The notes beneath the pieces are model-generated. The model saw only the letters and a program-made list of their open reading frames with translations. It did no database searches and had not been told where the DNA came from. Below, piece by piece: positions 23,338-64,000 of a DNA stretch of 64,000 nucleotides. Location of the stretch: contig CM114271.1 in assembly GCA_050084515.1 (NCBI GenBank), forward strand, positions 10,850,001-10,914,000. Reading direction: 5' to 3'. This DNA comes from Blasia pusilla (taxonomy: Eukaryota). The translations under genes and the position numbers were made by a program. The number at the start of each line of letters is the position of its first letter. Positions within the stretch are counted from its first letter, which is position 1.

Positions 23338-26102
23338 GTGCAGACGGGTTGCAAGCAGAAAAGCATTTTAGAAAAAAACCGCCTTCAACTCGTCAACAAG
23401 CAGCAAAACATTTTTGAAAAAATCCCCTTACAACCTGTTGGCAAACAACTTTCCTTTGCCAATGTTCTTGCAACCCGTCGGAATCCGACAAGTTGCAAGA
23501 TGATTTTTCCTCGCAAAAAGTCACTTGCAACCCATCGGATTCCGACGGGTTGCAAGATGAACTTTTTTCGCAGAAAAGTAACTTACAACCCGTCAGATTC
23601 TGAAGGGTTGCAAGATGATATTCTTTCACAAATAAGTTACTTGCAACTTGTCGGATTCCAACGAGTTGCAAGACGGACTTTTTTTTGCAAAAAACTAGCT
23701 CGCAAGCGGTCGGATTCAAAGAGTCTGCAATGTGATGCAACTTGTCAATTTCGACGAGTTGCTTTACCTACCTATTTTGCAACACATATGATTCCAAGGG
23801 GTTGCAACCTCACACTTGGACCACATACTTGGAAAAAATGGAGAAAACTCACCTGTCGCAGAAAATTTCCCCATTGCCTCATACGGACGGTCCATCAACT
23901 GAGCCACAAACACAACTCTTTGTATTTCCACTCAATTCCATCCTTTCTCCACCACACATGAAGCTCTTCCTAGCACTCCATGGCTTGTTTCAAGGTTTTG
24001 CTATCCTTGCAATGTTGAAGTAGAGCTACATGGTCTGTTCTCATACTCTCCTTGATGCAGGATTGTTGCCAATGGAAAACATCCAATCTTTCCCTTTCCG
24101 GTTGAACTTCCTCCCTCCCCCCAGAACACTTCCCTGATAGCAATCCATCCGGGTTGGGCATTGTCCGCCATGAAGCCATATATTTCAGGAGGAGGTCTTT
24201 TGTTTTCCTTCACCACCTCCAATAGAAGTAATCAACACATCTTCAAGCTGCCAACTTCTTCCGCTTTCACCTCACAGACAAAGATGGTTTTCAGACCCTT
24301 CTCCACATGGTCGTAGACGTGTGCACCCATGGTCAACCATCCATTTAACACCCTATAGCAAATATCAAAGCTAACCTAGATCCCAAATAGATCTTCTCCC
24401 TCCCTCGGTTAATAAGATATAGGCCGCTAGACGGCCCTGTAGTAGACATTTTGAAGACACAAGCTCTGGATCCTTTGCCTCCTTGGCCCATGAACTGCCA
24501 TCTTTGAATGAATGGAAACCGTGAGTTGGCCTTGATCTTGGAATTGGCATCCATCTCCGTGGTCTTTCCATCAAGTATTCGTATTTGACGCAATAAGTTC
24601 CTAAAGCTTTCTGGATCAGCCAAGAATGCAAGATTTTCCCATAGTTGTTTCTCCTCAACTGCCATGATCTCCCCTTGGCTAGGGATACCCAACAGTTGTT
24701 TGCAAATTTGTGATGCAATTGTCAATTTGATCACTCCGAGCTTTGATCCTTGAGAATTTTTGTACACTTCGGCCACTTTCTTTGCCACATCCTCTTTGAT
24801 GTGTCTCTGAATTGCACCTATGACAAGATGAGTGCGAGACCCAACATGAATTTCCAACCTTGTGTACTCGGACGTAGAACTATAGTCGTGCACTATGAAA
24901 AAAATTTAAGCCAGACATGCTCTAACACAGAAAAGGGAGGCTTGACAATGCAAACATCGATGGCCACCTGACACTATGGTTGTACCCACGAGGTAAGGAG
25001 ATTTTGCATTTTTGGGAGAAAATTGGGAAGTATTCACGACTCCGTTCCTCTCAAGGAAGGGGCATCCTAGACTTCTGCACTCTAAGGATCCAAAACATTT
25101 GGTGACGAGACACAATCCAAGGACCACATAGGATTGAAGCGCTTTTCCGTTGCAATCTGCACCATCGGTGACAGTCAATTTTTGGTCCATACCCTTCAAG
25201 CGGCCTCCATCTTTCTTATGAGCAAGACTGATAAGTGGAGGCAGCTCAAAAATGAAGTTTCCATCATACGTTGTTGGTAGCTCATCCAAATTATGTGCCT
25301 GAAAAATTTCAAGGGGAGGGAAGAAAGCAAAGAATTTCTTGAAACTTGAAGCAAGAACGAGTAAGCAGATGTTGGGTCTGACATGTTTCCAACAGATTGT
25401 GTGAGATCGACGACATCCAAAATGTCCACAGCTTCAATCGCGATATTTCGAGCTTGTGAGTTTGGAGTTGATGCTGGATAGGCCGAAGCTGCCGTGCCAA
25501 ATGTGGAGCATGGAGCACTCGAAGGTTTCAGACCGTCTTCATGAGTCGCAGTGGTGATCAGATGAAGGCCATAAACTCTGAATTTTCCATTGGAGTAGGG
25601 TAAGAGGTTCCACACTTTGGAGCCTCCAATTTCTGGTTGGTCTATTTCACCAATAATATCATCCGTTCCATCAACTTTGATATCCTTGGATACAAAGATG
25701 GTTCCAATGTGGAGAAGAAATTGAAGTGAAAGGAAATGTTCTTCGACAATTACATGAATGTCACCAGGTTGGGCTCAAATTATCTCCAATTGAGGAAGGC
25801 CCGCTAGATGATTGCCACATGTGAGCTTCACATAATTATCCATTTGGGTCAGACCAAGAATGATTGCCCAGATATAGGAATAAGAATGAGTAGAAGAATG
25901 AGAATGTTGAATTTTTAGTGACCAGTGTCCGTTTAAATTCTAACAGAATATATCTGACATGTAGTTGGTAATTAGGTTGAACCATCGCCATGTGGGAAAA
26001 TATTTGCCAAGGCTCCTTCAACCCGTGGGAATTTGATGGGTTGAATAGCCAAGAGCCCGTAGCATTATCATGGGGCAAAGACCCAAAGAGTCCGACGGGT
26101 TG
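23338..26102 (-). mobile_element. Internal fragment (copy A) of the palindrome-bearing MULE-like DNA transposon
   Basis: Contains a transposase exon paralogous to 38670-40700, with palindrome copies at both ends. Confidence 0.8.
23853..25860 (-). pseudogene. GCM-like zinc domain + MULE-type DDE transposase exon, copy A (frameshifted)
   Basis: ELPTTYDGNFIFELPP, CFGSLEC..GCPF, CLHCQ, HVGS.TH, VFKMS, GFMADNAQ, DVFHWQQS. Ends at a CAG|GTGAGT donor near 23853. Confidence 0.75.
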
Positions 26103-26149
26103 GAAGGTAGACTCAAGGGGAATCCAACTCTAGCCCTCAAACTGGACGT

Positions 26150-27484
26150 AACTCAAGGTGTAGGCTGAAACATCGCGCACCTATGTGACATACCTCTAAC
26201 AATGGTCACACTGGTAAACTCTTTGTGTAGACCCATCTCCTCCTCCATGCTGAGGCAGTGTCCACTACCATGACGGGTGCAATCGCACTGGTAATGGGCT
26301 CCACCGCATGCCCAATGCAACAAATAATCCATGAAAACTACTTTTGAGCCGCATTGATGGCGCAGGTTGCTATGGCATAGACTCGCGTTTTCCTCCTTGA
26401 GCTCGTGGTTCCACAATCCTCTCCCAAAATCCACATTGTTGCACTGGTGGTGCACGCAATCGTGACTGCTCTCGCACAGAACCCATGGTTGCTGCGCTCT
26501 CCTCAGCCATGTTGCACTCAATATTCTCTGTGGTCTCAAAAACATATCTCATCATAGGTGAGGTGTGCATAAGAAGTACCCCATCCCTCACCTGTCTCCG
26601 CACGTCTCGGTCCTACATTGCGTATTATGCCTAGATACCCTGGGACACTATCACCCTCTAAGTGACACTTCTCAACGGACGCAATCAAGTGAACACCTCA
26701 TACAAACTCTCACCTAGACGCCTATGCAAGTCGTGGATACTCCGCAACTTCTCCGTCCGCACCACCTCGTAGCTTGTCCGCAACTCCGCAAAGAACTCAA
26801 CTACGGGCTAAACCTACGACAAACGTGATTGGATGATGCAACTCCTCAAGTTCGAGTTACCCCTCCTAACATATCACGGGTGGAAGAGGAAGTAGCCTCT
26901 CCTAACTCCTTCTCATCATCTGGAAACAACTCAGTCCATGACATATAGTGTGGGTCATAGTAAAGTCTCCATGCCTCAATCTTATGGATATATCTCTGAG
27001 AGAACTCATGGCAATCATCCATCGGTGCCCCCTCTAAGTGCTACAATATTCCATTCTATGTTGTAAATGGGTTGAACTCTCTAGAGTTCCTTACCCGTTG
27101 TGAATCACACCAACTCCTAGACTCCGCAATGAAGTCGTACAACTCAATCGTGCCTATAGCTCCCGAAAAACCTACGCGGTCCTCTATTTCGGTCGTCCAT
27201 CTCGTACGTCCAACTAGTAGGACCACTCAATGTGTGCGATGAATCACTGACAAACCCCTCTACATCCTCCCCTTTGTTTGACAATGACATAGAAGGAGAT
27301 CGAGGCGGTCCCTCATGTGGAGACCTTCGGAACCTCACGCCACTCTGCGTATATCCTCTAGAGCTACTCTCGAGTCCAGCACCTCGCCTCTCAAAGTCCC
27401 GAAAGGACGCCGTGATGATCCTCGTGCCTATCTCACGTGATCACTCTCAATCTCACGAGAAATCCCTCAATCACTCAACCCAAA
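26150..27484 (-). mobile_element. Degenerate retroelement-like 5' region (possible gag start), target of the full-length LTR insertion; continues at 38216-38430
   Basis: Sequence is contiguous across the CCAAA TSD. Contains broken ORFs (27144-27338, 26153-26545) with no diagnostic motif. Confidence 0.3.
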
Positions 27485-28702
27485 TGTAATGTACAAGTGT
27501 TTCTATTTTATAGTCGATTTAGTAAGTTCGATCCCCAAGAGGATCATTGCTTGATGAAAAGAGAGTTCGGAATTATAATTCTGTTGTAATAATTGTATTT
27601 AAATGTGTGTGAGTTATATTCAATGTCTTATCAATATCTTCTGATATTTCTTAGTACCAAAGGATCTTTTCTCGGTTCTCTCTAGTGGAATTGACAGCAT
27701 GTTCAGGTAGATTTTCCTCTCGACATCAAGAAACCTCACGGAGATCTCAACACAGAAGCTGGCTTCTCCTACTTTCGGAACTCAATCCGTCTTGGCAGGT
27801 TACTCTCTGTCAAACAGATTTCCTACAACTCATGTTGATTATTTCGCTGATGAGAAAGGTTCTCCTGATTCACTCCTCATTCTGCAGACCCAAAAAGAAT
27901 ACTCAAACATAAGCATCGCACATCAGAATGAATGAATGACTGCTTTACTACTCCATCAAGAACGAGAAAGCTTCAAAGTGTATACAAGCTCAAGAGGATA
28001 CTACTCTCTTGCTCGGACCATTCCTACAACATAAGGACTTCGTAAGAGAATGATGATAATGACTTCTGCTTTGCTTCTTAAATATTCGTTGGAGTGGAAG
28101 TGATCCTAAGATTCGAAACGTTCTTGATGAAGCTAGTGTCTCTTCACTATTTCTAACTACCTAGATCTATGGTTCTCTTAGCTTTTCCTACGATCCCTAT
28201 GAATCCGCGGTACAAAATTGTTCTAACTACCAATTTGATACAACGGGTCGCACCCTTCCCTAGTCGAACTGTTTTAACATGTGTCTCTTGAAATCACTGT
28301 CCTTCTTAGCTTCGCTTCGTTGGACTTCAGGAGGACGAAGTACTCCATGCTTCGTTCTTATTTCCTGTGCTTCGTACTTCGTGCTTCGCGCTTCGTTAAA
28401 GAGCGAAGTACTTCGTTCTTCTTTTCTTCGTGATGCTTCGTTATGTAGCGAAGCACTTTGTAGACAGAGCTTCGTATATCTTCGTTAGGCTTCGTTAAGC
28501 TTTGTTAAGCTTCGTTATTGCGTTTTCCTCTCCTCTAAGGCAAATCCTTGATCTTCCATCTCTCGGCCTTGTCCCAAGAGCTTCGTGATTCACTTATTCT
28601 TCTTCATAGTAATAAATAATCATAATCAAAATCATAATATACAAGAGTCTTCGTTGAATAAAAAGATATATTCTTCAAGAGTACAAAATTGTGGGTATCA
28701 CA
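27485..28702 (-). repeat. 3' LTR
   Basis: Direct repeat of 37015-38215 (TGTAATGTACAAG...GGGTATCACA on +), with roughly two dozen substitutions and two small indels by eye. Confidence 0.96.
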
Positions 28703-28715
28703 TACCCCCTCCCTC
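28703..28715 (-). other. Polypurine tract
   Basis: GAGGGAGGGGGTA on the minus strand directly before the 3' LTR. Confidence 0.9.
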
Positions 28716-28741
28716 AAATGTGAGCCGCCCTGGAGAACACT

Positions 28742-30643
28742 TCATGATGTTTCTCCTATCTCCATAAAAGTATCCTCTAAACTATCGAACTCCAGGGTAG
28801 ATGCAAAACAACCGTGAATTGTAAAAGGTTTGTTGATAATGTTAGAAGTATGATTGCGCATTCTTTCTCGTGACTTGTTAACAACTAATTTACTCCCTAG
28901 TACTTTGTTCTGGACTAAGACGTCAGATGGATTAAATACTGGTAAGTCTTCAAGAATAATGGAAAGAGTGGGTACAACTTCTGGAAGAGACTTTGTATGG
29001 TTGTCGAATTGGCGCTTCCAATGTTTGTTGATGTAGTCGATTTCTTCATTCATTTGTTCTTCGAAACTCTTGGCAGCTACCTCGACTAACTCTTTGACAT
29101 GTTCGAGGTCTAACTCCACTTTGTTAAGCAGTTTCTGCTCCGCTTCCAATAGTGCGATCCTCCCTGTGAACTCTGACCATTGCGCCAAGAAGTCTTTGTT
29201 TGTTTCTTGCTGTTCCTGAAGCAGTTTCGAGGACTCAGCATGTTGGGTGGCCAATTTCTTGAACTCGCAGTGCACACGATGTATTTGCTGTCGATATTGG
29301 TCAATAAGGTGCGAAGCTTCCTTGATCTGCGAAGCTAACTGATCAGTCCCACATTCCAAGTTAATCGCCAAGCTCTCCCATTGGCATGCATTTCGTGCTT
29401 CGTACTGACACTGAACTAAGTTGCTTTGAGCTTTGCGAAGCGTGGTCTTCGTATCTTTGAGTTCTTGATCCCGAACGTGAAGATTGGTTTCTGCTATTCG
29501 ACGCTGTGCTTCGTTTTCTGACGAAGCTTGAGCCCTACAGTTGAGGTCATCTAGGGCTTGTAAATAATCTTCCACCGACGCTGTGTCGTCTAGGTGGAGG
29601 ACGTCTTGCAGTTGATGCATGACCGGAACTGCTATATTCAAGAACCACACCATATCGTTGGCTGTCTGAGACATCAAGCGAAGGGAAGGGTGGTGATCGC
29701 TAGCACGAGGCGTCTCATCGGAGTCCTCCTGAGTAGCAGGTTCTGGTTCCAATGGCATTTCGAAGTTGACCCTGCCGCGCTTCGGTCTTGGCTATTTAAT
29801 GACATCTTCGACTTTGCGCGAAGCCGAAGCATGAGGATGGTGCTTTAGGGCTGCTTCGCTTGGTGGTGTGGCTTCACGGCTTCCACTAGTGCCCGCTCCG
29901 CTCCTTCTTGGTAAGCGAACCGGAGTGACCTACGACCACTCGAGTGCTTCGTTCGACGTCAATTCCTGCTTATGAAGATACAGGTGGATTATAAAAGGCG
30001 ATAAGTAGGACTTCGTGCTTGGATGAAGCACCTCCAGCATGTTTCGTACGTTCCCGTCGACAAAGGAAGCAAAGTCGACTCCCGACGCCGTGGGATCCAA
30101 GTGTTGATTCCAAAGAAGGTAACAAATCTTGACGAGCTTGTTGGTTAGGTAGTAAGATCAAGCAGGATAAAATAACGTCATCACATGCTTACAAAACTCT
30201 CCAAATAATGGTGGAGACAGCGATGTAGCCTTGTAACCATTCCTGCTCAGACGATCAGACGTGACACAGCCGAGTGCCAACAATTCTTCGTGTTTTACCA
30301 AGAGCTCAGTATCGTACTCATATTGTGGAGCAGCCGGAAGCATGTACATGGCTTGCCAATCATCCGGCGTCCACTGTTGGGGTTGTGGGCGATATCGAAG
30401 ACCCTTCTTCCAAAACTTGGCTGCTGCCGTTGAGGAACGAAGCTCTCCGAGGAGTTCTCCTAAGGTAAGTGTCCAATTGGATTGAAAGAACGTCGCCAAA
30501 GAGCGCGCTTCCAGTGCTTCGACTAGCTCGGGGGACAGCTTGACCATCGGCATTGCCGCACTTCGCAGAATGGGAGTGGAGTCTTCGCAAGGCATGGCTG
30601 TATGTCGCGCTCGGTGAACACCGCGCTTTGGTATGCTCCGCAA
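28742..30643 (-). pseudogene. Extra 3' ORF of the Gypsy element (globular N-terminal part plus long coiled coil), interrupted by stops
   Basis: ORFs 30158-30643 and 28742-29758 are in the same frame, separated by premature stops, and lie between the integrase and the PPT. Confidence 0.65.
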
Positions 30644-30807
30644 CTTCTTGTTTACCCTGTCCAGGAATTGACCTGTCTGGTTCCATAAGGGCGCTTATAT
30701 AGTCCTTGCTCGGCTGTTGTTGTTGGCGTTGGAACTGCAACAATTAGTTTGGCGCTTCGCTGCTTCGCTCTTCAAGAACTGTCGCGCTTCGTTGCTTCGC
30801 TACAAAG

Positions 30808-33800
30808 CTAGAGGCATGCGCTTACCCCCCTTCCTCCGGTTTCAGTCCGCATAAGGTTGAGGCTCATAATACTGACGCACATGCATTCCATTGACCCGCG
30901 TGGGCAGGGATTCTCCCTGTAAGGTCCCCAAATCAGGGATCCATTATCATAGATGGCCAATACCCGGTAGGGCCCCATCCAATTTAGTTTTAATTTTCCG
31001 GGGAACTTGAGTCGCCGGTTATCGTACAACAGCACCAGGTCTCCAACGCTTATCGATTGTGGCCGGAGATGTCGATCGTAACGTTGTTTGCGTGCTTTTT
31101 GCACCTGTTCCGTCTGGCGTAACGCCAACGTGCGTGCTTCTTCCAACGCGACTAAGGTCTCATTCCATCCTTGGAAAACTTTGTTGACGGCCTCTGTTCT
31201 CGTTCCTTCCAGTACTCGATAAGTGGGCAAAGCCCATTCAATAGGGGTTAAGGGATGAACACCATAAGTCAAGAAGAACGAGGTATGCTTTGTCATGACT
31301 TTCTCCGCTGTTCGGTATGCCCACAATGCCGTGGAGATTTTCATGTCCCAATCATAGGAATAGGTGACCGTCAATCGATTCAATATCCGGCAGATCAGGC
31401 CGTTAGATTTTTCCGTCAACCCATTGGCTTTAGGGTTGTAGGGCGTGGTTTTCCGATGCTTAATCACAAAGTGGGAAGTGAGAGACTCAATAGTATTGTT
31501 TAAGAAGTGAGTGCCCCGATCACTTACTAATTCCAATGGGCAGCCATAACGAGTGATAATCATCTCGTATAAAAATTTGGCCACTGCTTCGCTATCATCT
31601 TTACGCGTGGCCACCGCCTCGACCATCTTAGTACAATAGTCGGTGGCTATCACAATATACTTACGCCGTGTTTGGCGAGTAGCGGGGGAGATAGGTCCTA
31701 CAAAGTCAATACCCCATTTTTCAAAAGGGGGCTAGGGGCATGATAGGTACCAAAGGCCACCGGGAGGTTGCCGTGGGTCGACCTGCTCTTTGACAGGCAT
31801 CACAACTCTGGATAAAGTGACCTACATCTTTGTACATAGTTGGCCACCAATAACGTGCGGCCAAGATTTTCTTGATAGTATTTTTTACCGCATAATGTCC
31901 ACCAGAATCAGCCGTATGCATGGCTCTGATGACTTGGGGAACTTCGTCTGCTTCCAAGCATCGTCGATACTCTTCATCCGCACCTAATTTGAATAGGATC
32001 CCCCGACATATCTCAAATGGTCCTATCTTATGTAAGAAAAGTGTGCGCTCCTCCGCTATCATAGGGCCTGGAAGTTGCAAAGTAATTAAAAAACGCAAAA
32101 TATCCTCATAAAAGGACTTGCACAACCGGTCTTCTCTAATATGGAACATGTCTTCGTCGGGAAAGGTATCATCGAAGGACTGGGTGAGGTCCACGTTCGT
32201 CATCCTTAACCTGGAAAGAAAATCGGCATTGGTATGCACCTTGCCGGCACGGGTGACCACATCGAAAGTGAATTCTTGGAGCAGAAGGATCCATCGCGCA
32301 ATACGACCGGACAAGTCCGCCTTTACCATTAATGGTCTGAGCGCGAAATGGTCGACATGGAAAACAAATTCGTAACCCAATAAATAGTGTCGAAACTTTT
32401 TACACGAGAAGACCATGCCTAGCGCCTCTCGTTTGGTGGTAGTAAATTTTTGTTCCGCCGAAGAGAGTTGCCGTCCGGCGTAGTAAACCGGAAAGTCATG
32501 TTTATTGTCATCTAGTTGGTTGAGCACCACTCCAATGGCAAACGAGGATGTGTCCACATATACGTGGAAGGGTTTGGTCCAATCAAGGGACCGGAGTACA
32601 GGCGCTGTTTGCAATGCCCCTTTTAAAGTATCAAATGCCGCTTGGCACGTTGGATTCCACTCCCATTTGGTAGATTTTTTAAGTAATGCAGTAAGAGCTC
32701 CTGCTTTTACCGCATAATCTTTAATAAATCGTCGATAGTATCCGACGTGTCCCAAGAATCCTCTCAATTCTCGGAGATTGGTGGGTGGTTCCAATGCGAC
32801 GATAATATCCACCTTAGCCTTGTCGACCTCAATTCCTTGCGCCGACACTCTGTGCCCCAACAAGATCCCTTGTTTCATAGCAATATACGATTTTTCCGGA
32901 TGGAGGGACAAGTGCACTTCACGACAACATGCGAGGGTTAATTCTAATTTCTCCAAGTGTTCGGCCTCTGTACTGAAGATACAAAAATTGTCCAAGAAAA
33001 TTTCAACAAACTACCACACATACTCTTGGAAGATGGAGATCATCATTCGTTGGAAGGTAGCTGGGACATTGCACAACCCAAAGGGCATCACGCGATACGC
33101 AAACGTTCCCCAGTGCGTGGTGAAAGTGGTGAGGGGCCGATCTTTTTCTCGTATGGATACTTGGTTATAACCCGAGTATCCATCCAAGAAAGTATAACGC
33201 TCGTGGCCGGCAACCTTATCCAAAATACTGTCAGTAAAAGGTAGAGGGTGATGGTCCTTTAAGGTGGCCGCATTCAATTTCCGGTAATCTTGGCACACTC
33301 TAATTTTTCCCATTTGTTTCTTGGGTACAATCACAATGGGAGACACCCACTCGCTACTTAACACTGGATAAATTATTCCTACTCTGAGACTCTGGTCAAT
33401 CTCGTCCTTGACTAGTAACGAGTACTTCGGGTTGAGGCGATACTGCCTCATTCGTACAAGGACCGCACCTTCTTTTAGGTCAATTTTGTGTTCACCATAC
33501 CGTGCTAGAATGCCTGTCATTTCATCCATGGAGTATGCAAACACATCCAAATACTCAAACAATAATCTTTTATACTTCAAGAGTTCGGTGGGCGACAAAT
33601 CCGCCGAGAGGCGTAAAGACTTCTAATCTGTAATTAAGACTGGTATGTAGTCCTTTTCTTGAACCATACTCTCTGTAAAATGGAATGTGCTATGACCCAG
33701 CTTCTCTTCTTCTCGGGTCGACATTGGTTTGCTAGGTATCGACTCCTCGTCTATTTCATAACATTCTAAATAATATACATTGGCCGAGGACTCTGTAGAT

Positions 33801-36595: not shown

Positions 36596-36979
36596 AAAGG
36601 TAGGGATCCATGGAGGGGAAATTAAAGGTTTCTACTTCCTAAGCCTACAGAAGTGTGCCAGGTGCTCTTAATCTTCCTGCCAGGTTTTCCTCCCATAAAG
36701 AGAAGTACCGGGTCATCACCAAGTACAATTGACGTTCATGGGTTGAGCACCGTTCGGCGACTGGTTTATTGACAAGGCTAATTAATTGTTCTATCTTTTC
36801 TAGCACCAATGCAGCAAATCTGTTGTAATCTTCTTTCATCCATTGTCTGAGGGGAATAGCTAGAGAGATCAGATGGTCTTCAGTAAGCACTAGCTGGTTG
36901 GGTCTTCTTAGAGACGAGGCTTCTTTCCCCGCTCCCGGATTCCCCATGTATCTCTCTCCCTTTTCAGCAAAGAATATGA

Positions 36980-36997
36980 TCCCCGGTAGCGGCACCA
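36980..36997 (-). other. Primer binding site (tRNA-Asp-like)
   Basis: TGGTGCCGCTACCGGGGA, 17 nt inside the 5' LTR boundary; resembles the plant tRNA-Asp PBS TGGCGCCGTTGCCGGGGA. Confidence 0.75.
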
Positions 36998-37014
36998 AAA
37001 AGTTTCTTGCTATA

Positions 37015-38215: not shown

Positions 38216-38669
38216 CCAAACTTACGGCACTCAATCTACAATCCCTCCCATTGAGACGTACTATGCGGCAACAAGCGATGTGGTGCGGCAAATCGGCTGA
38301 TCTATCGTTTCATGGACAAAACATACCCTCAACTCTGGACATCCCGCATAGGTCTATGTCCACTAAACCCATACATCAATGATGCTCTCAGCATCAACAC
38401 GAAACCCAATATCCCAAATAACTATTTGCAGGCCTTGTATACGGGTTGCACCAACATTCTTGATGCAATCCGTCGCTCTCCGACTGGTTGCACACTCAGG
38501 CAACTCGTCGGTTTCCGACGGGTTGCACACTCGGGCAACCTGTCGCATGCGACAAGTTGCTTGGTTTCTTTGGTTTGAAATCCCTATAGTGCCCACGCTT
38601 CTCAACTTGAGGTGCAACTTTTCAAAAAATTCTCACCGTGAGCTCGGCAAGACAAAATAGTGAACTCAC

Positions 38670-41760: not shown

Positions 41761-41847
41761 GTTTTCACGTCCAGACTTCCATAACCGCCGACACGTCACC
41801 GTCAGAACGACGGTGCGACCCAATGGCCAGCCCTACGGCTTGAAAAG

Positions 41848-41855
41848 TATAAATA
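41848..41855 (+). promoter_or_regulatory. Candidate TATA box of the ParB/MTase-like gene
   Basis: TATAAATA in GC-rich context, 233 bp upstream of the ATG at 42081. Confidence 0.5.
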
Positions 41856-44853: not shown

Positions 44854-44854
44854 T

Positions 44855-47800: not shown

Positions 47801-47870
47801 GGATCATGCGTGTTTGTGTGTGTGTTCGGTGACAGCGATGTATGTTGTGTAGCGATGTGTATGCGCACGA
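44855..47870 (+). mobile_element. Ty3/Gypsy 3' fragment: RNase H, integrase, C-terminal PHD finger, PPT and partial LTR
   Basis: LHTDWS..GLGAVL, TDHQPLKW, ADGLSR, HEELGH..C..C, WSLDFAGP, DGLAER, CMLC...LVCDGCSRGWHMACL...WMCPRC. PPT AGGGGGGCGA at 47110-47119; TGTCACG at 47232 as the likely LTR start. Confidence 0.88.
46795..46938 (+). CDS. PHD finger at the integrase C-terminus
   Basis: C4HC3 pattern CMLC-x11-CDGC-x4-HMAC-x14-CPRC with the conserved W. Confidence 0.92.
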   Translation, partial: RCMLCGSARGAATMLVCDGCSRGWHMACLTPPLTRVPQGRWMCPRCT

Positions 47871-53097: not shown

Positions 53098-54804
53098 AGT
53101 TTCTAGTTTAGGTAATCAAATGTAAATTTTTGAGTTGCGATCAGATTATGATAAAGGACTTCCATTTTTTTTACATTCTTGTAATGTTTTCGGACTTTTG
53201 GTGCTTTTGTGTCTGGTCTCTTCTAGTCTCTCATGGACAGTCTTTATTTTGCAACCAGTCGGATTCTGACGGGTTGCATATTTTATCAGGGATTTTTTTT
53301 GGAAGGGGTGGCTTTAGGACTTGTTTAAACTTGTGAAAGAGGTCTTTGGTTACCTCTTATGATTGCTTCAATGAGGTCTACTAGCTTGCAACCCGTTGGA
53401 TTCTGACGGGTTGCAAACCAAAGACAATGTTTGCAACCTGTCGGATTCTGAAAGGTTGTAAGAGGAAACATTTGTTTTTCTTTTCTTTTTATTTGTTCCC
53501 CTTGGGAGTTCTCTATAAACTTTTCCTCTCTTGCAACCTGTCCGATTCCAATGGGTTGCAGGTTTGATTGGGTTTGTGTTTCCTAACATTAATTCATATG
53601 ACCCCCGATGATATCTTTCTCATACCTTTTGGCCTATACCCTGTCTTGCAACCTGTAGAATTTCATCAGGTTGCACGTCTAGGTGATTTGAGTTTCTCTC
53701 TGTTTTTTGTAATCTTTGATCTGAACCATAGTGTTACTTATCGTATCTACACATACGACTGGTTGTTATAGAATATTTGGTATAGGTTGTTATCGGCTAT
53801 TTTTTTCTCTCACCTCTGATCAGAATGGAAGCTTTGGGTTTCTTTTCATATCTTCATTTGTAGATCGAATAACTTCCTGGACGAAGTGTCGAGAATGAGG
53901 TTGGGAGTCTCAAATAAAGTGTCCAAAATCTGTCGAGGTTGCTCTTAGTGTTTCAAGTAACGTCTTCTTTTTTTTAACCCCTTTTTCTTTCATCCCGTCA
54001 CGCAACATGTCAGATTCCAAGTGGTTACATTTCAGGTTAATAGGCTTCTATTCGTTTCATTATCTGTGGTTTTTGTTCTTCATTTGGTGCTTCTACATTT
54101 TTTCACTTTTGACGTTCTCCAACCTGGTGGATTCTGACAGGTTGGCTACTTGATTGAATCTCTTTTCCTCTGAGTCTATCCTTTTAAGCACTTTGGCAAG
54201 CTTCCTTCACTTTCCTTTCGTTTCCCCATAATCTTCAAACCATTCTTCTCTAAGACATAATTTTCTGAGAGGTTGCACGCTTCCCCTTTGTGATTCCCTT
54301 GTAGGAATGAATTCTTAACTCTGTTTATTCTTCGCAACTCCCGGCAAGAGTTCTCATTTCCTTCATTGTGTTGGCTTCCTTCACTTCTAAGATTTGTGTT
54401 TAACCACACTTGCCTAACACCCATCAACTTAATAAAGAACTTTATATTGCCATTACTCCTTAATACTTAGACCGTCATGACTCGGTGTTAAATTTTCACA
54501 AAGTAGTGGGTATGAGGGTGGGAGCCTTGGATTAAGAGCCCATTATCTTTTCATCTATTGAGTAGTCTAACCCTTAAGTGCACTGTAGCCACTCGTATTT
54601 TAAAACATAAGGATGCAATATCTTCTATTAACACCATAGTATGAGTGATGTAAGCATGTCTGGAGTGGTCTTTGTATGTCTATTTTCAGATCCAAGCCAA
54701 GAAAGACGATGTTAGTTTTGGCCCCAATATGGTCCACTTCTTACTATCTTCTAAACATTTCTTACATTTGAAGGAGAGGAAAAAATAAGGTATGTCAGGA
54801 AGTT

Positions 54805-56690
54805 TTGAAGAGAGGGAGCGGATTGTGCCCTTTTTTTTTTAAAGAGAGACTCTCCTCTCTTCCTCTCTCCTGTTTGAATACCAGCCCCCCACCTTGTTTG
54901 CGTGGTAAGAAGGATGCCATTGTGGTTCAACCAGTGCATCAGGAAACAACTCAAATGGGCAGTGGAGGAGTAGAAGGACATAACTATATTGCTCACCCTT
55001 TTGCAAGTGGGGTAATTCGGACAAGTCTTCACAATTCACAACATGCAACAACTCCATATCAACTCCATACATGACAAGTACATATTGTTTCAATCTTGTA
55101 TAGCACCTTTAATATAAATTGTTGGTTTCTAATATTGGCATATGTAGGTGCCAAAGACATACCTCGACTTTGCAAACATAATATTGAATGATATGCCTAA
55201 CACACTTGTTGAGGAACTACCCCAATTTGTCACACCCAGCGATGCATAGTTACAATATGTAGACAGTCTTGGATTAGAGCACTGCACTTGGAAAAATGGC
55301 ATTACAAGACGGGAAATGAGCCATCTTATTGATGAAAGAAAGGCGTGGGCTCAAGCCTTCCGCGACAGAAAGAAGATTGCACCTACTTCTAGTAACCACC
55401 CTATTCGCTTATGTTTCAGTTTCTCATTTTGATAATTATACATTGAGTTAGTTTAGTATAAAATATATGCATTTTCTTTATGTAATATGATCATGTTGAA
55501 TGTAGGTGTCCAAAAGGAACTTCTCGCAATGAAGGGGATTGAGTATAGTGATGTTGAACTCACCGGTGACAAGATCAACAAGTAGTACTCACTGCTAACT
55601 TGCGGAATAAGACTTGAGCAGTTCCATGAGCTTAGAGTAATCATGCGGCTCCCCATGACAATCCTTGTAAATTTTTCTTCTTCCAAGGAAATCCATCTTA
55701 TGTCCCGTATGAAATCTGCAAGGGAAAGTGGGGACATTTGCCCTACTCCTACCTTGCTTGGGCGCTCTCCGATCAACCAGAATCATGATGTTCATTCCGG
55801 GAATGTCTACTCAGGAGCGAGAAATAACAATCCTACCCACCCAGGCTATGGTTTAAGGCACAGAACTTTTCAGTCTTCTCCCATTCATCTCAATAACGAC
55901 ATGCCTTCCTATGATGCTCCCCACCTGTGTTGCGACCCTCATAACCAAACGAACACCAAGCGGAACATTAGAACTTTAGCGGGCTCACGCTAGGATGGTT
56001 GAGCTTTGGAGAGGTCTCTTGGAAGAGTCGCAAGAGATGAAATGCACGAATAGAGTTTGTGCATTTCATGCGTTTATGGTTGCGACCAGGAAACCTAGAC
56101 CAAACGTGAACCAAGTCTTGAAAGAAGTCGAGTCTAAGAAGGTTGGTTACCAAAGAGGTGAGAACCAGATTTGGAACGCAACTAGCGGATGGAGTTTTGA
56201 TTGTGTTTCGGTCCATAAAATTTACTCCCAAAATGTGTTTGGCACAAGTAAAATGGCGTTGGAAATCTTATGCAAAGCCAATTATAAGAAGGTGTTCTGT
56301 ACATAGACGGATATGTGGAGTACTGCGAAATGCACCAATCCAGTTACTTAATTGGACTGGACTGGTGCAATAGACATGATTGAATCATTGGAGACTCTAC
56401 AACGTAGGACGCAGACCACAAAGAAAGCTTTCTAACGATTATGTAAACTCAGACGTCGTCTTCCATCGGTGGCTGTACCACAGGAAATACCTCTACCATC
56501 AATTACCAGCGGGATTTACATGCACGATAACATCCCAATGCATGTTTATGAAGCAGCAATTGGCAACATTGAAGCATTAGACTACAAGCACAGCGAGCTC
56601 CAGGAGCAACTCAGCATCATGCGTGATATTACAAGCTCCCTGAAGATATTGAGTTTAATATGGACAAGATTCACAACTTGAAGATCAAGT
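54805..56690 (+). pseudogene. Degraded spliced coding remnant of unknown family
   Basis: AG acceptors at ~55147 and ~55505 followed by protein-like frames with stops. ORFs 55995-56306 and 56469-56681 share a frame. Confidence 0.25.
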
Positions 56691-57364
56691 TGCAGAATCC
56701 AAAGGCCTGTTTGATAACTTTTGTTAGTAGAGCACCTGCAGCATGGCATAGTACTGATGTGTTTAAACATTTTGTAGCATCCATGGAGACTGCATTGAAA
56801 TAGATGGCATGCAGTGATCAGTAATGGGAATTTTCTTTCATCTGCACAAACACAATGTCACATTACTCCACTCTTTGCCAATACTTTTTGTACAAGGCTT
56901 CATGAGAAATCAGGCCTTGATCTCTATATATCTGATAATATTTTTATTTTGTGCATAGCGTCCACCAGCTATTTTCATCTTTGTATGTCATTCAATTGTT
57001 TGAATGGGTGATATTTTCGTATTTCATTCCACGTGTAAGCAGACTTCTTCATATATTCAAAATGGTATTAATTTTCTCCTACATGCCGAAGTGCCACAAC
57101 TGCCATTGTTTGGATCTTTCGTTTACCACAGCAGTTTTGTCTCAGGCTGTTTACTGGTCCAATGTTCTAATGCAACTATTCAACCGGTTTCTTCGTTACA
57201 AGGTACACATAAGTCAACATTCTATTGCAGGATTTAGGAGTATTTATCCATCATGGTCACTACCCAGGAAAATCATTGTCACTAATACCAAAAACTGTCA
57301 ATCCCCACGTTCGTCTCTGAATAACTCTACATGCATTGCCCCATTCACATGGATTGATAGTATG

Positions 57365-57490
57365 CATTTACCATATGCGCTCACATAATTCAGCAGAAGA
57401 CATACTTCAACTATCACACGCAACCTGCATTCACCATATGCGCTCACATGATTCAGCAGAAAACATACTACAACTGTCACACACAACCTG
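57365..57490. repeat. 63-bp tandem duplication
   Basis: CATT(T/C)ACCATATGCGCTCACAT(A/G)ATTCAGCAGAA at 57365 and 57428. Confidence 0.85.
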
Positions 57491-58449
57491 CTTCAAGTGC
57501 TCGCTCGGACCTATTCGGGCGCATAGGATCTTGCTGCACCTTCTCATCCTCCCGCCACTTCCGATTAAAGGGTTAACAGGGTTCTATGTACGAATTTACG
57601 CACCTTGCAGTTGCCACATAAACTGTTTATATTGATGCCATTTTTAATACATTTCTGTTCTAATATAAACTGCCCTTCCATATGCCATGGCTTTCATATC
57701 AATTATCGGCCGCATACTTGTTAGCCTGGACTAGTCCATGCTAACCTGTCTGACTAGCACTAGAATGCCTCCATTAATCTCAATACTCAACTGTTAAGCC
57801 ACAGGTCACTCGCTCGTGCTCATCATCCCTGTACCAATGAGAGAACCTAATTCTTCAATGTGATTTCTAGCTTGACAAATAGAAGAGAAGAGTTCATCCA
57901 GGGCGTGTGGAATCACATAACATTCATCCGAATTGCCCACTATCAACCCCAGGGACATGAACTTTATGGCTTTACGTGTAAACAGAAAATTAATGACAAG
58001 TGCTGATCAAATGCCACTCACTACTCACAACATTCCGAATATCAAACTGTGAAGGGGAGCTGGAAATTATAAAATTATTGAAAACATTAACCCCAGACTT
58101 TGTCCAGAGGCTTAGAAGTTCTGCTCTCAGATTAAATCCTACTAGCCTATATTGGTCGCACAGACCTGACGCGAAAAATCATTGTGCGAGATGAAAGAGG
58201 CAGCCGATGCGATCTCAGCTCGCAAACTTCGTTTTCCAACTCAAGTAGATGTGCAGAAGTGGTTCAATTCTTAGAAGCAAAGCTTTGGGCTAAGGTTCTT
58301 ATGTATTTTATTCACAAGAAGTACCAATTCCCCATCATATCAACCTGTAAAGGAAAAATAAGACGGTGATCGAAAGTTATTACGGTTCCAACCTCTTTGC
58401 CAGCGATTTCTATTGTCAAAACCGTCACGGAGCGGGAAGGCCCAGTGTT

Positions 58450-59124
58450 TTAAAGTTTAGTGAGAATGTAGATGTCCGTTTCTGCGTATTCGTCCTCTGG
58501 ATGGAATTCCCTACGATCGACGTTCTTGATGGAAAAGTACTGGGGAAGTAGACGCCAGAACAGAGCGTGCGCATCCGGGTCTCGTTGCTGGTAAGCGAGG
58601 AGGATGCGAGTATCAGAATTTGAGAGGTCCCCTAGAGCTGTAATGAGGGGCATGACGATGGAGTCCACATACACTACATCGGCTGCAATCAACACATCGA
58701 AAGGAGGCTTTACAGCTGCAGTTTGCTTCACATTGCCCCAGCACAACTGCGCGGTCTTCACCTTCCCAGCGGTGCAACCTCTGTTCCCTGCATCAGCCAG
58801 GGACGTAGCCGCCACATTACGCTTCACGTTTCGTTTCAATGCACCCATTACTGCTTGAATGTCGGTAAGCACCACATTTAGGCCCAAAAGCGCTGCCCCG
58901 AGACCTGCCGCTCCACAACCAGCTCCAATCTCTAGCCCTCGCCGGCCCTGCAGCTCCGGAGCAGATCCGCTACCTTCGCGAGCACAACGATCAAGCCACC
59001 GAACAAGAGCTAATGAACCCCGCCATACCGTAGTGCCTACTTCAAACGAGCTATTGTCCTGTTCGATCCGTAGCTTCTCCCCATTTGCGATCAATTCCAC
59101 CACAGGCCACTCCCCATAACCCAT
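58450..59124 (-). CDS. Methyltransf_16-family (METTL21-like) protein-lysine N-methyltransferase, intronless host gene, similar to Arabidopsis At5g44170
   Basis: Intact 224-aa ORF from the ATG at 59124: IEQDNSSFEVGTTVW, LEIGAGCG (motif I), VVLTD, LCWG, FDVLIAADVVY (DxxY), LAYQQRDP, EYAETDIY. Confidence 0.92.
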   Translation of the reverse strand: MGYGEWPVVELIANGEKLRIEQDNSSFEVGTTVWRGSLALVRWLDRCAREGSGSAPELQGRRGLEIGAGCGAAGLGAALLGLNVVLTDIQAVMGALKRNVKRNVAATSLADAGNRGCTAGKVKTAQLCWGNVKQTAAVKPPFDVLIAADVVYVDSIVMPLITALGDLSNSDTRILLAYQQRDPDAHALFWRLLPQYFSIKNVDRREFHPEDEYAETDIYILTKL

Positions 59125-60700
59125 TGCAGAACCCAACACAGCACTAGTGTTTCACTTATTGCTATGGTTCAGTAAGTTCTTCCTGGGACCATTCTCCGAA
59201 GAACCCGACAAGATAACCAGTATGTGATTTTGACTTTCTTAAAGAGAGTTCGGAGTCCGGAGACACTAATACTGCCGGGGGAAGAGGGTTCGGAGGGAAG
59301 AGAGTAACGCTCCGGCAGAGCCGCCACGAGAAAAGAGACGGGGAAAAACATGACTAGAACAAAAATAACTTGCAGCCTCTGCACTCAAACTCGACTATGT
59401 GTAGGGGTTGTAACTAACTTGCACCCTCTACCTAAACTCGCTGGCCGACTCCTAGTGAGTCCGTGTTACCACAAGTTCACAACTGGCCACTCTCCTCCTT
59501 TTCTAAATTGGTATTTTGGCAAGAAAGTCTCTCTTAAAAAAATGGCAGAATCCGTCTCCTATCTTCAAAACATTTTGAAATTTTTGTTTGCTTTCAAATT
59601 CATAAAATCTTTAGAAGAGAGTAGCAAGTGGACTACATTTGGGCCTAAACTAACCTTCTTTTTCCGGGCTTGGAAAGAGAAGTAGACATCATAACACCAT
59701 TGCAAACATCCTTCCATCTTTCTCCATGTGAGCTCAATTTTCTTCACATTGCCTGTCTAACCCAACTCTACAGTAAGCCGGGCTGAGGGGTATTATTGTT
59801 GGAGGACCATCGGCAGATAATTTGGCGAGTACAAACAATTTCATCAAAATGAAAGGTTTTAATAAAGACTCTGACTATGGTGTCAATAGACTCTTGTGCC
59901 CTTCAGGGTTCAACTTCTCAAAAGATGTGGTTGAGATGGGATTTTCTACAACAGAACAAAACACTAATCACTGCGCATTTATCGAAAAATTTCATGAGAA
60001 TCTTGGATGATGTTGGCTCATAAATGGGTGCATGAATTCGACCATGGATTGCTGTGTGTTTGACTACTTGGTTTTACCATTCTCTCAACCACTAAGAAAT
60101 GTATGCATCAAGAAGATAACGTGCAAGGACCAAGAGGACAATTGAAGCAACATGTTGGTAGCCGTCAGGAGTGCAGAGGAACTGATATGCACCCAAGTCC
60201 ATTCATTCAGACATGCAATCCGTCAAAATCTGACAAGTTGCATCCCTTGCAACATTTCGGCATCAACCCACAGGTTGCAACTCCTGCAACGCGTCGGAAT
60301 CCGACGAGTTGCAAGATACGGGACACTCCACATAAGCCAATTCTAATCTTCAGTTGGAGTGGTTCTCAACCTTTTGGAATTGGACGGGTTACCAACCTCT
60401 CAAACTGAAGGTTAGAGTCTAGGAAAGCAAGCGTACCACACCAAGAGAATTGAAGGTTACAAATTGGTGTTAGTACAGTGAAAAGACATCATGCAAAATG
60501 TATATGTGAGAAGACATCAGGCAACCCGTCGGTTTTTGACAGATTGTAAAAGCAGAAAAAGCCTCATCCCAATCTCGGACTGTGATCGAAAATAGCATCA
60601 GACCAAAAGCGTGAAGAGAATTGGGTGCATTTAAAAATCCACTTTATTTAAAACCGTTTGCGAATCAGTTATTTACATCTGATTTCCTTAACAAGAAAAT

Positions 60701-63700
60701 CTAGTCTATGATCTCTTCAGCCTCGTCATCTACAAAAATGTTCCTAACTCTTGCCGGTTCCTCTACAAGAGACTTCTTAGGGCTAGTCAGTGGCTCCTCT
60801 GCAGGATTGTAGATTGGAAGTGAGAAGGAAGGAGGATTTGAGAGCCTTGTCCCCCTAGAAACAACGTATCAGTCCCATGTTACCTCCAAAGAGTCCCAAC
60901 GCATGCCCCGATAGTTGATTTTAAAGCTTCTGCAAATGGAGACCCATTGATATCAATGTTTGCTCCTTCCCCGAGAACCAGCACATCTCAACTCCAAAAT
61001 GCTTCAAATCCAAGGCACCTACACTCACTCGTTATCATGCGACGGCTCCTCCAGACAAGCCGCTGGCCTTGCCCTTTCTATTTTGGGGATCATCTGTAGT
61101 GAGGATGGAGTCACAACCAGTGGCTCCAACGCAGGTTCTTTTGTCCATGCAGGCGACTTTTAAACAACAATCACCCTCTCATAGTCTGACTTTGCCTCCC
61201 GGAAAAGTGCAAACAAGGTGTTCCTAGACTCAAGGCAGAGAATGTTTCGGCCACTCTGCCAAGCAGCTCTCACACTTGCCCCAGGAAGACCCACCAAATC
61301 GAGCACCAAATCACCGGCCTTAAACACATCTCCATGAGGGTCTGTAGGAGTGCGGGTGATTTTTCCCTCCCTCCAAGCACTAGCACCCCTTCCTCGACGA
61401 CGATTCGTGGGTGTGAATTGGACAGATTGTTCAGAGTGTATCCATCTAAACCTCAAAAGACTCAAACCTGTGCTTTGTTCTGACAAAAAAATACACATAA
61501 GAGTATTTGATTTGCAAAAAACACATGTAAAAGTCAGCTAAGAATCGGTGGGAGGAATAGATCTTCCAAGAGCAACCCGATGGAATCCGACGGGTTGCAA
61601 ATGAAAGATATCACCAAGGAAATTCGCTCTAAGGGGGCCCTGAGCATTCAGACACTTTTCCCACCAACCGTGGATGCCCAAAAGGTTGCCCATATGCAAT
61701 CCGTCAGAATCCGACGGGTTGCTCGACACACCCCAGAACCCGACGAGTAGGTGCTACAACCCGTCTGACTCAGACAGGTTGCAGCAAGGCCTATAAGGGA
61801 GGGTGATGACCAACTCCCTTTTTGGGCTGTGTTTTGCAACCCGTCGGAGTTCGATGGGTTGCAGGAAAAAATGAAAACATTTGTAGCAAGAAAAGAAATA
61901 TGAATCATGAGTTATGGAACTTACCAAGACTTGGTTTGAAGTCGACCTTATTGGGTAGTCGTTCTTCACAACCAAAGACTGCACTGTTTGCCACTTCAAC
62001 GATCGCTTCACGCACTACAAGTTAGAGCTCATCCTCGCTTCTTCCAGTTAGAACCAGGAAACATCCCGTGTCACTAAGATATGCGTTGGCAAAGGAGAAC
62101 ATCAACGCGATCTGGTCATATGTGAATGGGGTGTTTCAATCCGGGACTATGTCGCGTGGGTTTTCTGCCCACAAATCTGAGCCCCAACGGTAGATTTACG
62201 ATGAGGAGGTCAACTACAACCTCCTCACGTACCCCATTGATGGTCCATGGGGCATGGCCGCCTCGCAGAAGCTTACATCCCAACAATGTTAGCTTCTCCA
62301 AGGCAAGCGTGGACTCTTGTGATGAGAACTTCTCCAATTCTTCCAGCAACGATGTCTGATGCAGCAAGATGGTGATTTGTGATACTCCATCCTTGTGCTT
62401 CCCCGACAATGAGGGAGTGTAGACAACATTCGTGTCCCCTCCTTCAGAGAAACCGGGAGTCTCCCTTTTTTGCTTCTTGCGAGTGGGGTGCCTGCTTGTT
62501 GGGATCTCTATGACATCGAAATCCACAAGATTCGGTTTGGAGGCCTCCCGTAGCCGTCCTTCTCGCCTTGATGATCGTGCATTGCATGGTTTGGGGGCCT
62601 TAACCTTGGATTTCAACCCCGCATTGGACTTGTCTTTTGTCGTTACTGTTTTTGACAAAATCTCCGCCGCCTCAATTGCTTGTGCCTCGGCATCCCCTTC
62701 GAAGTACTCCTCTGTCTTGAAAATGTTTGGGATGTCCTCCTAGCCAACAGCTAGCGCATTATACAAGTCTCGCATTGCTGGGTCAGTGAGCTCATTGGGG
62801 TCATTGAAGTCCAACTAGATTGGTCAGTTGAGCACTTCCCAAGGACTCATCTTGTGGGCCATCTCCATGTCATACATGGAGAATCCTTCACCATCCGGAG
62901 TATCTGCCCATAGCTTGAGCGCCGCCCGAAACTTCCTCCATGTTCCTGCGTTCACACAGGAGGTCAAGAATCTGAACACCATCCTCTACGCAACTCGATG
63001 GTGGGATAAAACGACAGCTTGATCTTGATGCTCTTTCTTCTTTTTCGCGAAGTCCCGTTTCTTCGGCTCGACAATCTCCTCGTCGATATCCCCCTACGCT
63101 AGAATGTGGTTCTTGAACATCGTCTTGAACCCAGGATTCTTTGTCAACTTATCTCGGATGTCATTCAACCACAACTCAAACTCCTCCCCCGATTTGAGGC
63201 TAGCCTCCTCCGGAACCGGCTGAATTCTCTGCAGGTCGGCTTGAAGGCATTCAATCATTGACTTTCCCAGCAAGCGCAAGGCATCCCATAAGGACCACTC
63301 TCATAGCCATTGGGAGATGACTGGGTCCGACACCCCCGATGAATGGTGTGCCGATTTTTTCTTTGCCTCCGTTCCCTCTAGACTGATTTTCATCAGTCAC
63401 GTGTGTGGGGATCCTCGTCCCTCTTTCGCTGCCTCTTGATTATGGCCTTCAACTCTTTGTAGAAGTCGGGCCCGAGCTTGGGGTTGAGGACAGCGATGTA
63501 CTGCTGCATCTTCTTTGCAATGTACCTGGTCGACGCTGACACCACAACTTGAATGAACTTGGCTCTCTCAGAAGCCGAAACATTCCCTCTCTGCTCTAGC
63601 TCTAGTGTCGCGCTTCTTTTCGCCGCCTGGATTTTTGACCAGTTGAGTATTGTAACAACTGCATCTTGGGAAATGAATGTGTTGGCCCACGTCTTCTTTA

Positions 63701-63845
63701 TTTGCGCTCCTTTTGCGAGCATCTCATCCACCAACTCCTCTCCGAGGAATCCTTTGTTTTGCGACGGGTGTGTTGTAAGAACCTTCCTCACTTGGTCACA
63801 TTCCTGGATCCAGTGATGGGTAACATTCCCTTTGGACACAAAGCT
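60701..63845 (-). pseudogene. ParB/MTase-like gene, copy 3 (exons 3-4; continues beyond the window)
   Basis: Paralogous to copies 1 and 2: GNVTHHWIQEC, NPGFKTMFKNHIL, VDLLIVNLPLG, GGREKSPALLQTLMEM, GDLVLDLVGLPGASVRAAWQSGRNILCLE. Ends FVDDEAEEIID*. Palindromes in the intron (~61480-61920), at 63880-64000 and in the 3' flank 60210-60550. Confidence 0.8.
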
Positions 63846-64000
63846 GCAAACATCAAGGAGAAGTAAGAAAATTTACAACTTGCAACTTGTCAATTTTTTA
63901 CGGGTTGGAAGTAGACGAACAAAATGACAGCTATTGCCAACCCGTCAAAGTCCCACAGGATGCTCCAAGAGCTTTCTTGGTGCAATCCGTTGGAAACGGA

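Follow-up and report, generated by a model that had tools for sequence, protein, structure and literature searches.

The few plant transposons studied in this respect (VANDAL, Spm, and AtMu1) rely on dense clusters of family-specific motifs to recognise copies of themselves and to evade silencing. In VANDAL21, the protein VANC21 binds a 9-bp motif that is arrayed in non-coding regions and introns, and these arrays evolve via tandem-repeat formation (PMC5735166). A preprint describes the binding of TnpA and of the AtMu1 transposase to clustered family-specific motifs (preprint 10.64898/2026.08.24.746577), and for CACTA elements another study reports subterminal motifs, the direct and inverted copies of which are able to form stem-loops (PMC2613891). 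A repeated motif of a longer and symmetric kind is found in a stretch of 64,000 nucleotides from Blasia pusilla (assembly GCA_050084515.1, contig CM114271.1, positions 10,850,001 to 10,914,000), called the window below, where a 27-bp palindrome occupies the non-coding DNA of broken transposon copies. By its sequence and by analogy with the targets of VANC and TnpA, we lean, with moderate confidence, towards regarding this 27-mer as a family-specific, methylation-sensitive site for a dimeric protein encoded by the element, which would have been multiplied by local tandem duplication.

The consensus of the motif is GCAACCCGTCGGA-N-TCCGACGGGTTGC, that is, two inverted 13-bp arms around one central base, with two CpGs in each half-site and four in the 27-mer. 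With at most three mismatches on either strand, 20 full 27-mer matches are present in the window, compared with none in 100 dinucleotide-preserving shuffles, and the motif proposed in the first-pass annotation of this DNA thus withstands the scan. Looser scans of the window find 47 copies with up to five mismatches, 60 with up to seven, 63 with up to eight, 66 with up to nine, and 70 with up to ten, while block-shuffled windows yield on average 0.05 matches at seven mismatches and 0.5 at nine. The figure of about 70 copies given earlier is therefore reached only at the loosest threshold, and 60 palindromes is the safer count.

The 13-bp half-site, allowing two mismatches, occurs in 90 places (0.64 expected; the largest number in a shuffle is 3). 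As 78 of these are paired, inverted, and separated by a gap of exactly one base, within the 60 palindromes, the unit is the pair and not the half. The remaining 12 mostly stem from palindromes that an indel has disrupted or that have strongly decayed, and a half-site at 34079, within a retroelement, is single and at chance level. A nearly constant inverted pairing with a fixed gap is what would be expected of the dimer-type site suggested in the first-pass annotation. The edges of the motif are sharp, with an information content of 0.9-1.9 bits at positions 1-13 and 15-27, values that are inflated by the picking of copies through their match to the consensus, and of about zero beyond, except for a T at position 0 in 39 of the 60 copies and an A at position 28 in 40 of them. 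The central base is evenly distributed (T in 16 copies, C in 15, G in 15, and A in 14), and the original description of two 13-bp arms, a variable centre, and a flanking T and A is borne out.

Searches with 12-mers from the motif in the texts of 8.1 million PMC papers and of bioRxiv (supplements excluded) returned only two unrelated primer matches, viral contigs contained 0 matches, and an Rfam scan of 23000-64000 identified no family. A reading of the half-site as a dehydration-responsive element (DRE)-like CCGAC or a MYB-like site was abandoned, the bases on either side being at odds with it. Nine of the 22 sequencing runs listed cover parts of 52001-62000, the largest share being 0.23, and no RNA run is among them.

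All 60 palindromes lie within 23470-63963 and are spread over 11 clusters, and each of the clusters first recognised by eye holds at least one copy. They are confined to 13,342 bp of non-coding DNA, defined as the 40,663-bp region minus transposon coding sequence, retroelement DNA, and the centre with a methyltransferase gene described below, which amounts to 33% of the region; among 20,000 circular shifts, 53 gave an equally good confinement. The density in this non-coding DNA is about 4.5 palindromes per kb. Even with up to ten mismatches, no palindrome is present in 1-23337, in the long terminal repeat (LTR) retroelement at 27484-38215, in 44841-47925, or in 54855-59522, in agreement with the earlier statement that exons, retroelements, the first 23 kb, and the host-gene region are free of the motif.

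The first-pass annotation spoke of the non-coding DNA of a single element. The confinement to non-coding DNA holds, but self-comparison and domain scans resolve 23.3-64 kb, instead of a single element, into a nest formed by two genes in at least five old, diverged, and partial copies, namely a DDE transposase-like gene (copies A and B) and an orphan gene, ORF2 (copies C, D, and E). The gene copies and the complete retroelement between them, with their open reading frames (ORFs), are as follows:

23846-25844, minus strand: transposase-like copy A, with ORFs in several frames, 76.5% identical to copy B
27484-38215, domains on the minus strand: LTR retroelement of the Ty3 type, with a target duplication of 5 bp (CCAAA) and LTRs of 1219 bp that share 96% identity
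38663-40762, minus strand: transposase-like copy B, with ORFs at 38802-39911 and 40001-40762
about 42150-44840, plus strand: ORF2 copy C, comprising the upstream region and the gene from exon 1 through intron 1 into the 5' part of exon 2, truncated at about 44840 by a Ty3 fragment
47926-51718, plus strand: ORF2 copy D, with exon 2 in one frame at about 49716-51671, interrupted by in-frame stops
61926-63880, minus strand: ORF2 copy E, with ORFs at 62116-62739 and 63393-63872, inverted with respect to copy D and 65-75% identical to it

Overall, the gene copies are pairwise 70-77% identical (the ORF2 copies 65-75%), and stops, frame changes, or deletions are found in every transposon gene copy. 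Copies A and B, each of about 2 kb, are direct neighbours once the retroelement at 27484-38215 is removed; the latter, which contains gag, zinc knuckle, RNase H, and integrase domains, is a later insertion between them. A large inverted duplication relates 49690-54854 to 63869-59523 with 65-75% identity, and its arms hold ORF2 and arrays of the palindrome. Its 4.7-kb centre includes an intact, intronless ORF of the lysine-methyltransferase family (58450-59151, minus strand, 233 residues; Methyltransf_16, E 1e-28), which may belong to the host, with an insertion on either side, or may have been captured. The context of the locus is eukaryotic, as seen from a spliceosomal-type intron, Ty3 elements, and a PHD finger. 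This nuclear transposon setting offers no basis for the parS-like operator that had been considered at first, and no ParB-like domain was detected in the ORFs scanned.

The eleven clusters are distributed around these genes in the following way:

Cluster 1, 23340-23810: 3' of transposase-like copy A; five palindromes and solo halves, the core being a 58-bp tandem array at 23467-23717
Cluster 2, 26018-26103: upstream of copy A; one degenerate palindrome and one half-site
Cluster 3, 38465-38547: 3' of copy B; two palindromes and a degenerate one, with a 35-bp period
Cluster 4, 40844-41745: upstream of copy B, about 160-1065 bp from its start; 11 palindromes, among them a 67-bp array at 41195-41722
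Cluster 5, 43325-43903: within intron 1 of ORF2 copy C; eight palindromes, with a 65-bp array at 43383-43606
Cluster 6, 48980-49677: within intron 1 of ORF2 copy D, syntenic with cluster 5; 11 palindromes, with a 73-bp array at 49126-49294
Cluster 7, 51808-52200: 3' of ORF2 copy D; six palindromes and a half-site, with a 53-bp array at 51909-52201
Cluster 8, 53251-54145: D arm of the inverted duplication; seven scattered palindromes with unrelated spacers
Cluster 9, 60215-60547: E arm, at the mirror position of cluster 8; four palindromes
Cluster 10, 61572-61862: 3' of ORF2 copy E, at the mirror position of cluster 7; four palindromes
Cluster 11, 63937-64000: start of intron 1 of ORF2 copy E; one palindrome and a half-site, cut by the end of the window

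The sites thus lie 5' of the transposase gene, occupy intron 1 of ORF2 as well as 3' regions, and recur in further segments of the two arms (53251-54145 and 60215-60547). Intron 1 is filled with palindromes in copies C, D, and E, from about 30 bp past the donor to about 45 bp short of the acceptor. Such a distribution bears on the possibility that the motif is an independent dispersed short repeat, for instance a tiny foldback, or a site for a host transcription or methyl-DNA factor, which would be common in the genome and dense here by chance. The extension of two thirds of the copies to T...A, which makes a 29-bp palindrome, would suit a repeat of this type, and if the motif proves to be genome-wide and unlinked to the transposon family, it is just another repeat. 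However, the first 23.3 kb, 13.8 kb of retroelement DNA, and the 4.7-kb centre contain no copy, neither a target-site duplication nor, outside positions 0 and 28, any conserved flank is seen, and the positions are syntenic between diverged gene copies, so that the sites were already in the element when it was copied. We therefore consider a dispersed repeat or host-factor site distinctly unlikely.

Tandem Repeats Finder detects arrays with periods of 58, 35, 67, 65, 73, and 53 bp, those with periods of 53-73 bp consisting of 3-8 units, and the spacers are unrelated between different arrays. The periods of 53, 58, 65, 67, and 73 bp show no common multiple that would point to helical phasing. 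Between clusters (1573 pairs), the mean identity of the palindromes is 0.741, whereas that of the flanks (20 bp on either side) is 0.304 and that of random positions 0.292. The palindrome is the sole part shared between clusters, and since a plain satellite copied as whole units would share its spacers too, this counts in favour of the palindrome as a unit of its own. The original wording that the motif is an operator rather than a satellite was too sharp, in that tandem arrays of 53-73-bp period do exist. Ordinary transposon minisatellites resemble these arrays in their tandem arrangement and fast turnover and differ from them in that the arrays of the window have no more than a 27-bp core in common and many of the copies stand alone.

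From one gene copy to the next the arrays keep syntenic positions, and those of arm D mirror those of arm E, yet they evolve faster than their surroundings. Between copies C and D, intron 1 of ORF2 is 55% identical, with 154 gap columns and with the palindromes still aligned, compared with 74% for the upstream region and 71% for exon 2. A structure-driven minisatellite without a protein partner has to be weighed at this point: a palindrome prone to form hairpins or cruciforms would seed arrays via slippage or template switching and hitch-hike in the non-coding DNA of the transposon. The motif does occur in tandem arrays of 53-73-bp period, and its single strands fold to hairpins of 10-13 bp with energies of -12 to -13 kcal/mol and z-scores of -4.7 to -6.3. 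Slippage cannot explain, however, why one 27-mer alone recurs in 11 clusters with unrelated spacers, and it leaves solitary copies such as those at 53251-54145 unexplained. Together with the independent changes of the two arms described below, these points make a purely structural origin a conceivable but rather improbable explanation.

The 60 copies depart from the consensus in 241 positions, 99 of them through C>T or G>A transitions that fall on the eight CpG positions; of the 240 CpG dinucleotides of the palindromes, 122 are intact and 90 are now TG or CA. The copies diverge from the consensus by 0.265 at CpG sites and by 0.106 elsewhere, about half of the 23-30% pairwise divergence of the gene copies, as expected of neutral decay since a common ancestor. 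The ratio of observed to expected CpG in the window, 0.54-0.85, is like that of a methylated genome. Judging from these patterns, the palindromes of this locus are relics that were near-perfect when the copies arose and now decay roughly neutrally, fastest at CpG. Decay like that of neutral DNA at the locus is also compatible with the minisatellite explanation, but the behaviour of the arms weakens it. Symmetric changes in the two arms number 19, compared with 14.8±3.2 when changes are shuffled among all copies (642 of 5000 shuffles reach 19) and 17.1±3.0 when they are shuffled within clusters (1619 of 5000), and 189 changes affect one arm. The arms change independently, without co-variation, and the stem is not maintained at the locus, being neither kept nor regenerated.

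The 369-residue ORF of copy B matches proteins of 699-855 residues with 29-32% identity (E 1e-35 to 1e-47), none of which has a Pfam domain, and a profile of its relatives covers 2937 representative clusters at E of at most 1e-3. The family consensus includes MFDH..., FMADSAQANW, and RERTCLFHW, and this FDH/FMAD/C-x-x-H pattern is the D, D, C/D-x-x-H signature of Mutator-like and related DDE transposases. Copy B of the window reads FMADNAQ and RLDAFYW, the C..H motif having changed to D..Y with loss of the H, and it is missing about 60 residues of the zinc-binding region of the family. In the protein P0002, the N-terminal domain of the family is tandemly duplicated (residues about 1-110 and 150-260, delimited by eye), and copy B keeps one such domain, in the ORF at 40001-40762.

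In a Foldseek search with a model of the core (mean predicted local distance difference test score 72.6), ranks 1-5 are all ISCth4, a member of the IS256 family, with E 1.4e-3 to 1.3e-2, probability 0.84-0.99, and a template modelling score of only about 0.2; the cores of retroviral integrase, Hermes, and Mos1 follow. VIA-align of the same model gives Z 6.2-6.9 for integrase cores and Z 6.2 for ISCth4, with a root-mean-square deviation (rmsd) of 13. A first model of 574 residues had no clear fold match (GCM domain, probability 0.75; ISCth4, Z 7.1, rmsd 15.6). In the Atlas, the named neighbours of the transposase family are clusters of Mutator-like elements (MULEs; 0.88). No relative passes the curated Pfam cut-off for MULE or Transposase_mut, the best being P0005 against Transposase_mut (E 0.034, 13.5 bits, cut-off 21); the transposase-like ORFs of the window have no Pfam match, and the profile finds only chance-level rows among PDB sequences. 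From its sequence and the models, the gene of copies A and B is read as that of a DDE transposase of the Mutator/IS256 kind, a likeness that stops short of proof of superfamily membership.

IS256-type elements transpose via circles with abutted ends. As they are the nearest solved relatives of the transposase, and as a 13-bp arm is typical of terminal repeats, the palindromes could also be abutted transposon ends. With each arm as a terminal inverted repeat, the joint would correspond to a circle junction or to a minimal derivative that consists of ends only, and the transposase would bind the sites as ends and not as regulatory sequences within the element. No copy boundary in the window ends in an outward-oriented half-site, however, the first site, at 23340, being a lone right arm. 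Moreover, it would take sixty separate insertions to place that many junctions within introns and promoters and in register with the tandem units, and no target duplications are seen; an origin from abutted ends is thus very unlikely.

The second gene of the nest, ORF2, is built alike in copies C, D, and E: the first coding exon is 38 nt long, the donor reads CAC/GTAAGT or GTGAGT, the acceptor is AG, and in each copy the phase agrees with exon 2. In copy C, exon 1 starts with the ATG at 43253, reads MATVEMAMRAMN, and is followed by the donor CAC/GTAAGT.

Under the reading of the 27-mer as a protein-binding site, the palindrome would be the cis-recognition site of a Mutator/IS256-like family of DNA transposons. 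The inverted 13-bp half-sites at a fixed 1-bp gap would accommodate a dimer of an element-encoded DNA-binding protein, candidates for which are the transposase, through its zinc-binding N-terminal region, and the product of the orphan ORF2. Founder sites were presumably single copies in promoters, 3' regions, and intron 1 of ORF2, and tandem duplication would then have multiplied them together with their own spacers. By analogy with VANC and TnpA, dense clusters would make the protein specific for its own family, which could serve to counter silencing, to activate transcription, or to assemble the transposition complex. The two CpGs of each half-site would render binding sensitive to DNA methylation, and with four CpGs per site such sensitivity is likely. 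The binding of a protein, the identity of this protein, and the effect of its binding are what we infer from the arrangement of the sites.

In VANDAL21, as here, the target motif is family-specific and densely packed in accessory-gene introns and in the region 5' of the transposase gene, in arrays that expand through tandem duplication and vary from one related copy to another (PMC5735166). The suggestion in the first-pass annotation that the sites are VANC-target-like is supported with respect to non-coding confinement and to array turnover with the motif kept, but not with respect to the protein, as no VANC homologue was found in the window ORFs scanned and ORF2 matches nothing. VANDAL21 is Mutator-like, and the transposon family of the window probably belongs to the same superfamily, yet its transposase is invisible to the Pfam models of MULEs. 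The VANC21 motif is 9 bp long, non-palindromic, and present in one orientation, whereas the unit of the window is a 27-bp inverted pair with four CpGs. Binding and loss of methylation are demonstrated for VANC (PMC5735166) and are putative for the site described here.

The TnpA sites of En/Spm are likewise short family-specific motifs in direct and inverted orientation that are capable of forming stem-loops. They are bound by an element protein other than the catalytic core, and clusters, not single motifs, confer specificity; they contain CpG, are linked to methylation, and diversify together with the protein (PMC2613891; preprint 10.64898/2026.08.24.746577). CACTA elements differ in having subterminal motifs (the maize motif also has a CCGAC core), CACTA ends, and a Tnp2 transposase, whereas in the window the sites occur in internal non-coding DNA with a fixed 1-bp gap, and none of the 30 window ORFs scanned matches Tnp2, Transposase_21, or Transposase_24. 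The known cases concern short one-way motifs in Arabidopsis and maize, while the site here is long, two-fold symmetric, and endowed with four CpGs.

Relatives of the transposase were compared in 80 metagenome loci. One independent lineage (L040/L041, L043, and L047/L049), in which the same transposase family is part of an element spanning 15 kb or more and the copies are about 80% alike, has its own palindrome of 24-26 bp, roughly TCAACTTTTG-N4-CAAAAGTTGA. It occurs inside this element in 51-bp arrays and in scattered copies with unrelated spacers, with five matches in L040, compared with none in shuffles, and one in L047. Upstream of a distant transposase relative in L021, nine direct copies of an 11-mer are accompanied by a perfect 24-bp palindrome, GACCCTCTCGGA/TCCGAGAGGGTC, at 286-310 and 607-631. 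Its inner bases, TCGGA/TCCGA, equal the five inner bases of each arm of the window motif without the central base, a weak likeness, both copies lying in a 321-bp duplication. Across the loci, repeated family-specific motifs near the transposase gene are common and palindromic ones recur, neither being universal.

Other repeats were noted in these loci. A 72-bp satellite lies a few kb from transposase relatives at L058:12117-14840 (38 copies) and L061:16364-19901 (49 copies), reaching the contig ends. An element of 2.5 kb that contains 25-bp arrays of AATAACCA is found at L040:14596-17099 and also in L037, L047, L050, and L080; its site and orientation vary, which marks it as an independent small mobile element. 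A common end of the L040-type element at L040:17347 was rejected, since the break exists in L040 only.

Within the four regular arrays, aligned with MAFFT and compared at non-CpG positions, the palindrome is more conserved than the spacer (0.825, or 772 of 936, vs 0.664, or 1086 of 1636), which is true of three of the four arrays and speaks for a protein-binding site. A number of observations weigh against such a site. The comparison within arrays is biased by the finding of units via the palindrome, a bias of which the cross-cluster comparison is free. In the youngest array there is no difference (0.926 for the palindrome, 0.941 for the spacer), so that the superior conservation of the palindrome expected from the first-pass annotation is seen between clusters and in three arrays, but not there. 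The transposase-like copies are broken, which leaves no possibility of present selection at the locus, and no termini, at which a Mutator-like element would have inverted repeats and target duplications of 8-11 bp, could be defined among the nested partial copies of the window, which keeps the term subterminal from being applied to the sites. ORF2 has no relatives in two homologue searches, in a tblastn search against the 80 loci, in the Atlas, or in Pfam; its copies are degenerate, and a distant relation to VANC may nevertheless exist. No recognised DNA-binding domain was found for the candidate proteins in the ORFs scanned. The motif of the window is absent from the 80 loci (0 exact half-sites and two matches with up to two mismatches), in which palindrome arrays are present in one lineage only, the others having direct repeats, ordinary satellites, or nothing. 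The arrays of AATAACCA in L040, L047, L050, and L037, tried as part of the system, were rejected as well because they lie within the separate inserted element, and one type of array is thereby lost.

A more far-reaching proposal, which we advance tentatively and hold to be rather doubtful, is that of a second, independent system of anti-silencing or self-recognition of the VANC/TnpA type, in a Mutator/IS256 branch that is invisible to Pfam and spans distant eukaryotes. A dimeric protein, possibly that of ORF2, would read a long methylation-sensitive palindrome in it, and each lineage would have its own, such as the 27-mer or TCAACTTTTG-N4-CAAAAGTTGA. The transposase family is large, with its 2937 representative clusters, and named by no domain library, and the genome is apparently large. 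If binding is real, the palindrome would provide a clean and easily assayed pair of operator and protein, the 27-mer, methylated or not, being offered to the two candidate proteins. It would also open a route to asking how widespread such self-recognition is outside the model angiosperm families.

Further features of the window lie outside the clusters. The Ty3 fragment next to ORF2 copy C (45082-46938, plus strand) contains an RNase H/integrase part, followed by a separate ORF with a PHD finger (E 5.6e-12), and an exact 97-bp repeat is located near it, at 47119-47215 and 47745-47841. Two minus-strand ORFs of 465 and 343 residues, with one stop between them and no Pfam family, occupy 13241-15670. 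An AT-rich segment at 3019-5623 carries long inverted repeats (3019-3253 vs 5623-5387, 88%; 3304-3639 vs 4971-4636, 92%) and may be a foldback element or one with long terminal inverted repeats. Tandem repeats with long units are present at 166-1175 (383 bp, 2.6 units, 93% matches) and at 11679-12266 (224 bp, 2.6 units, 96% matches).

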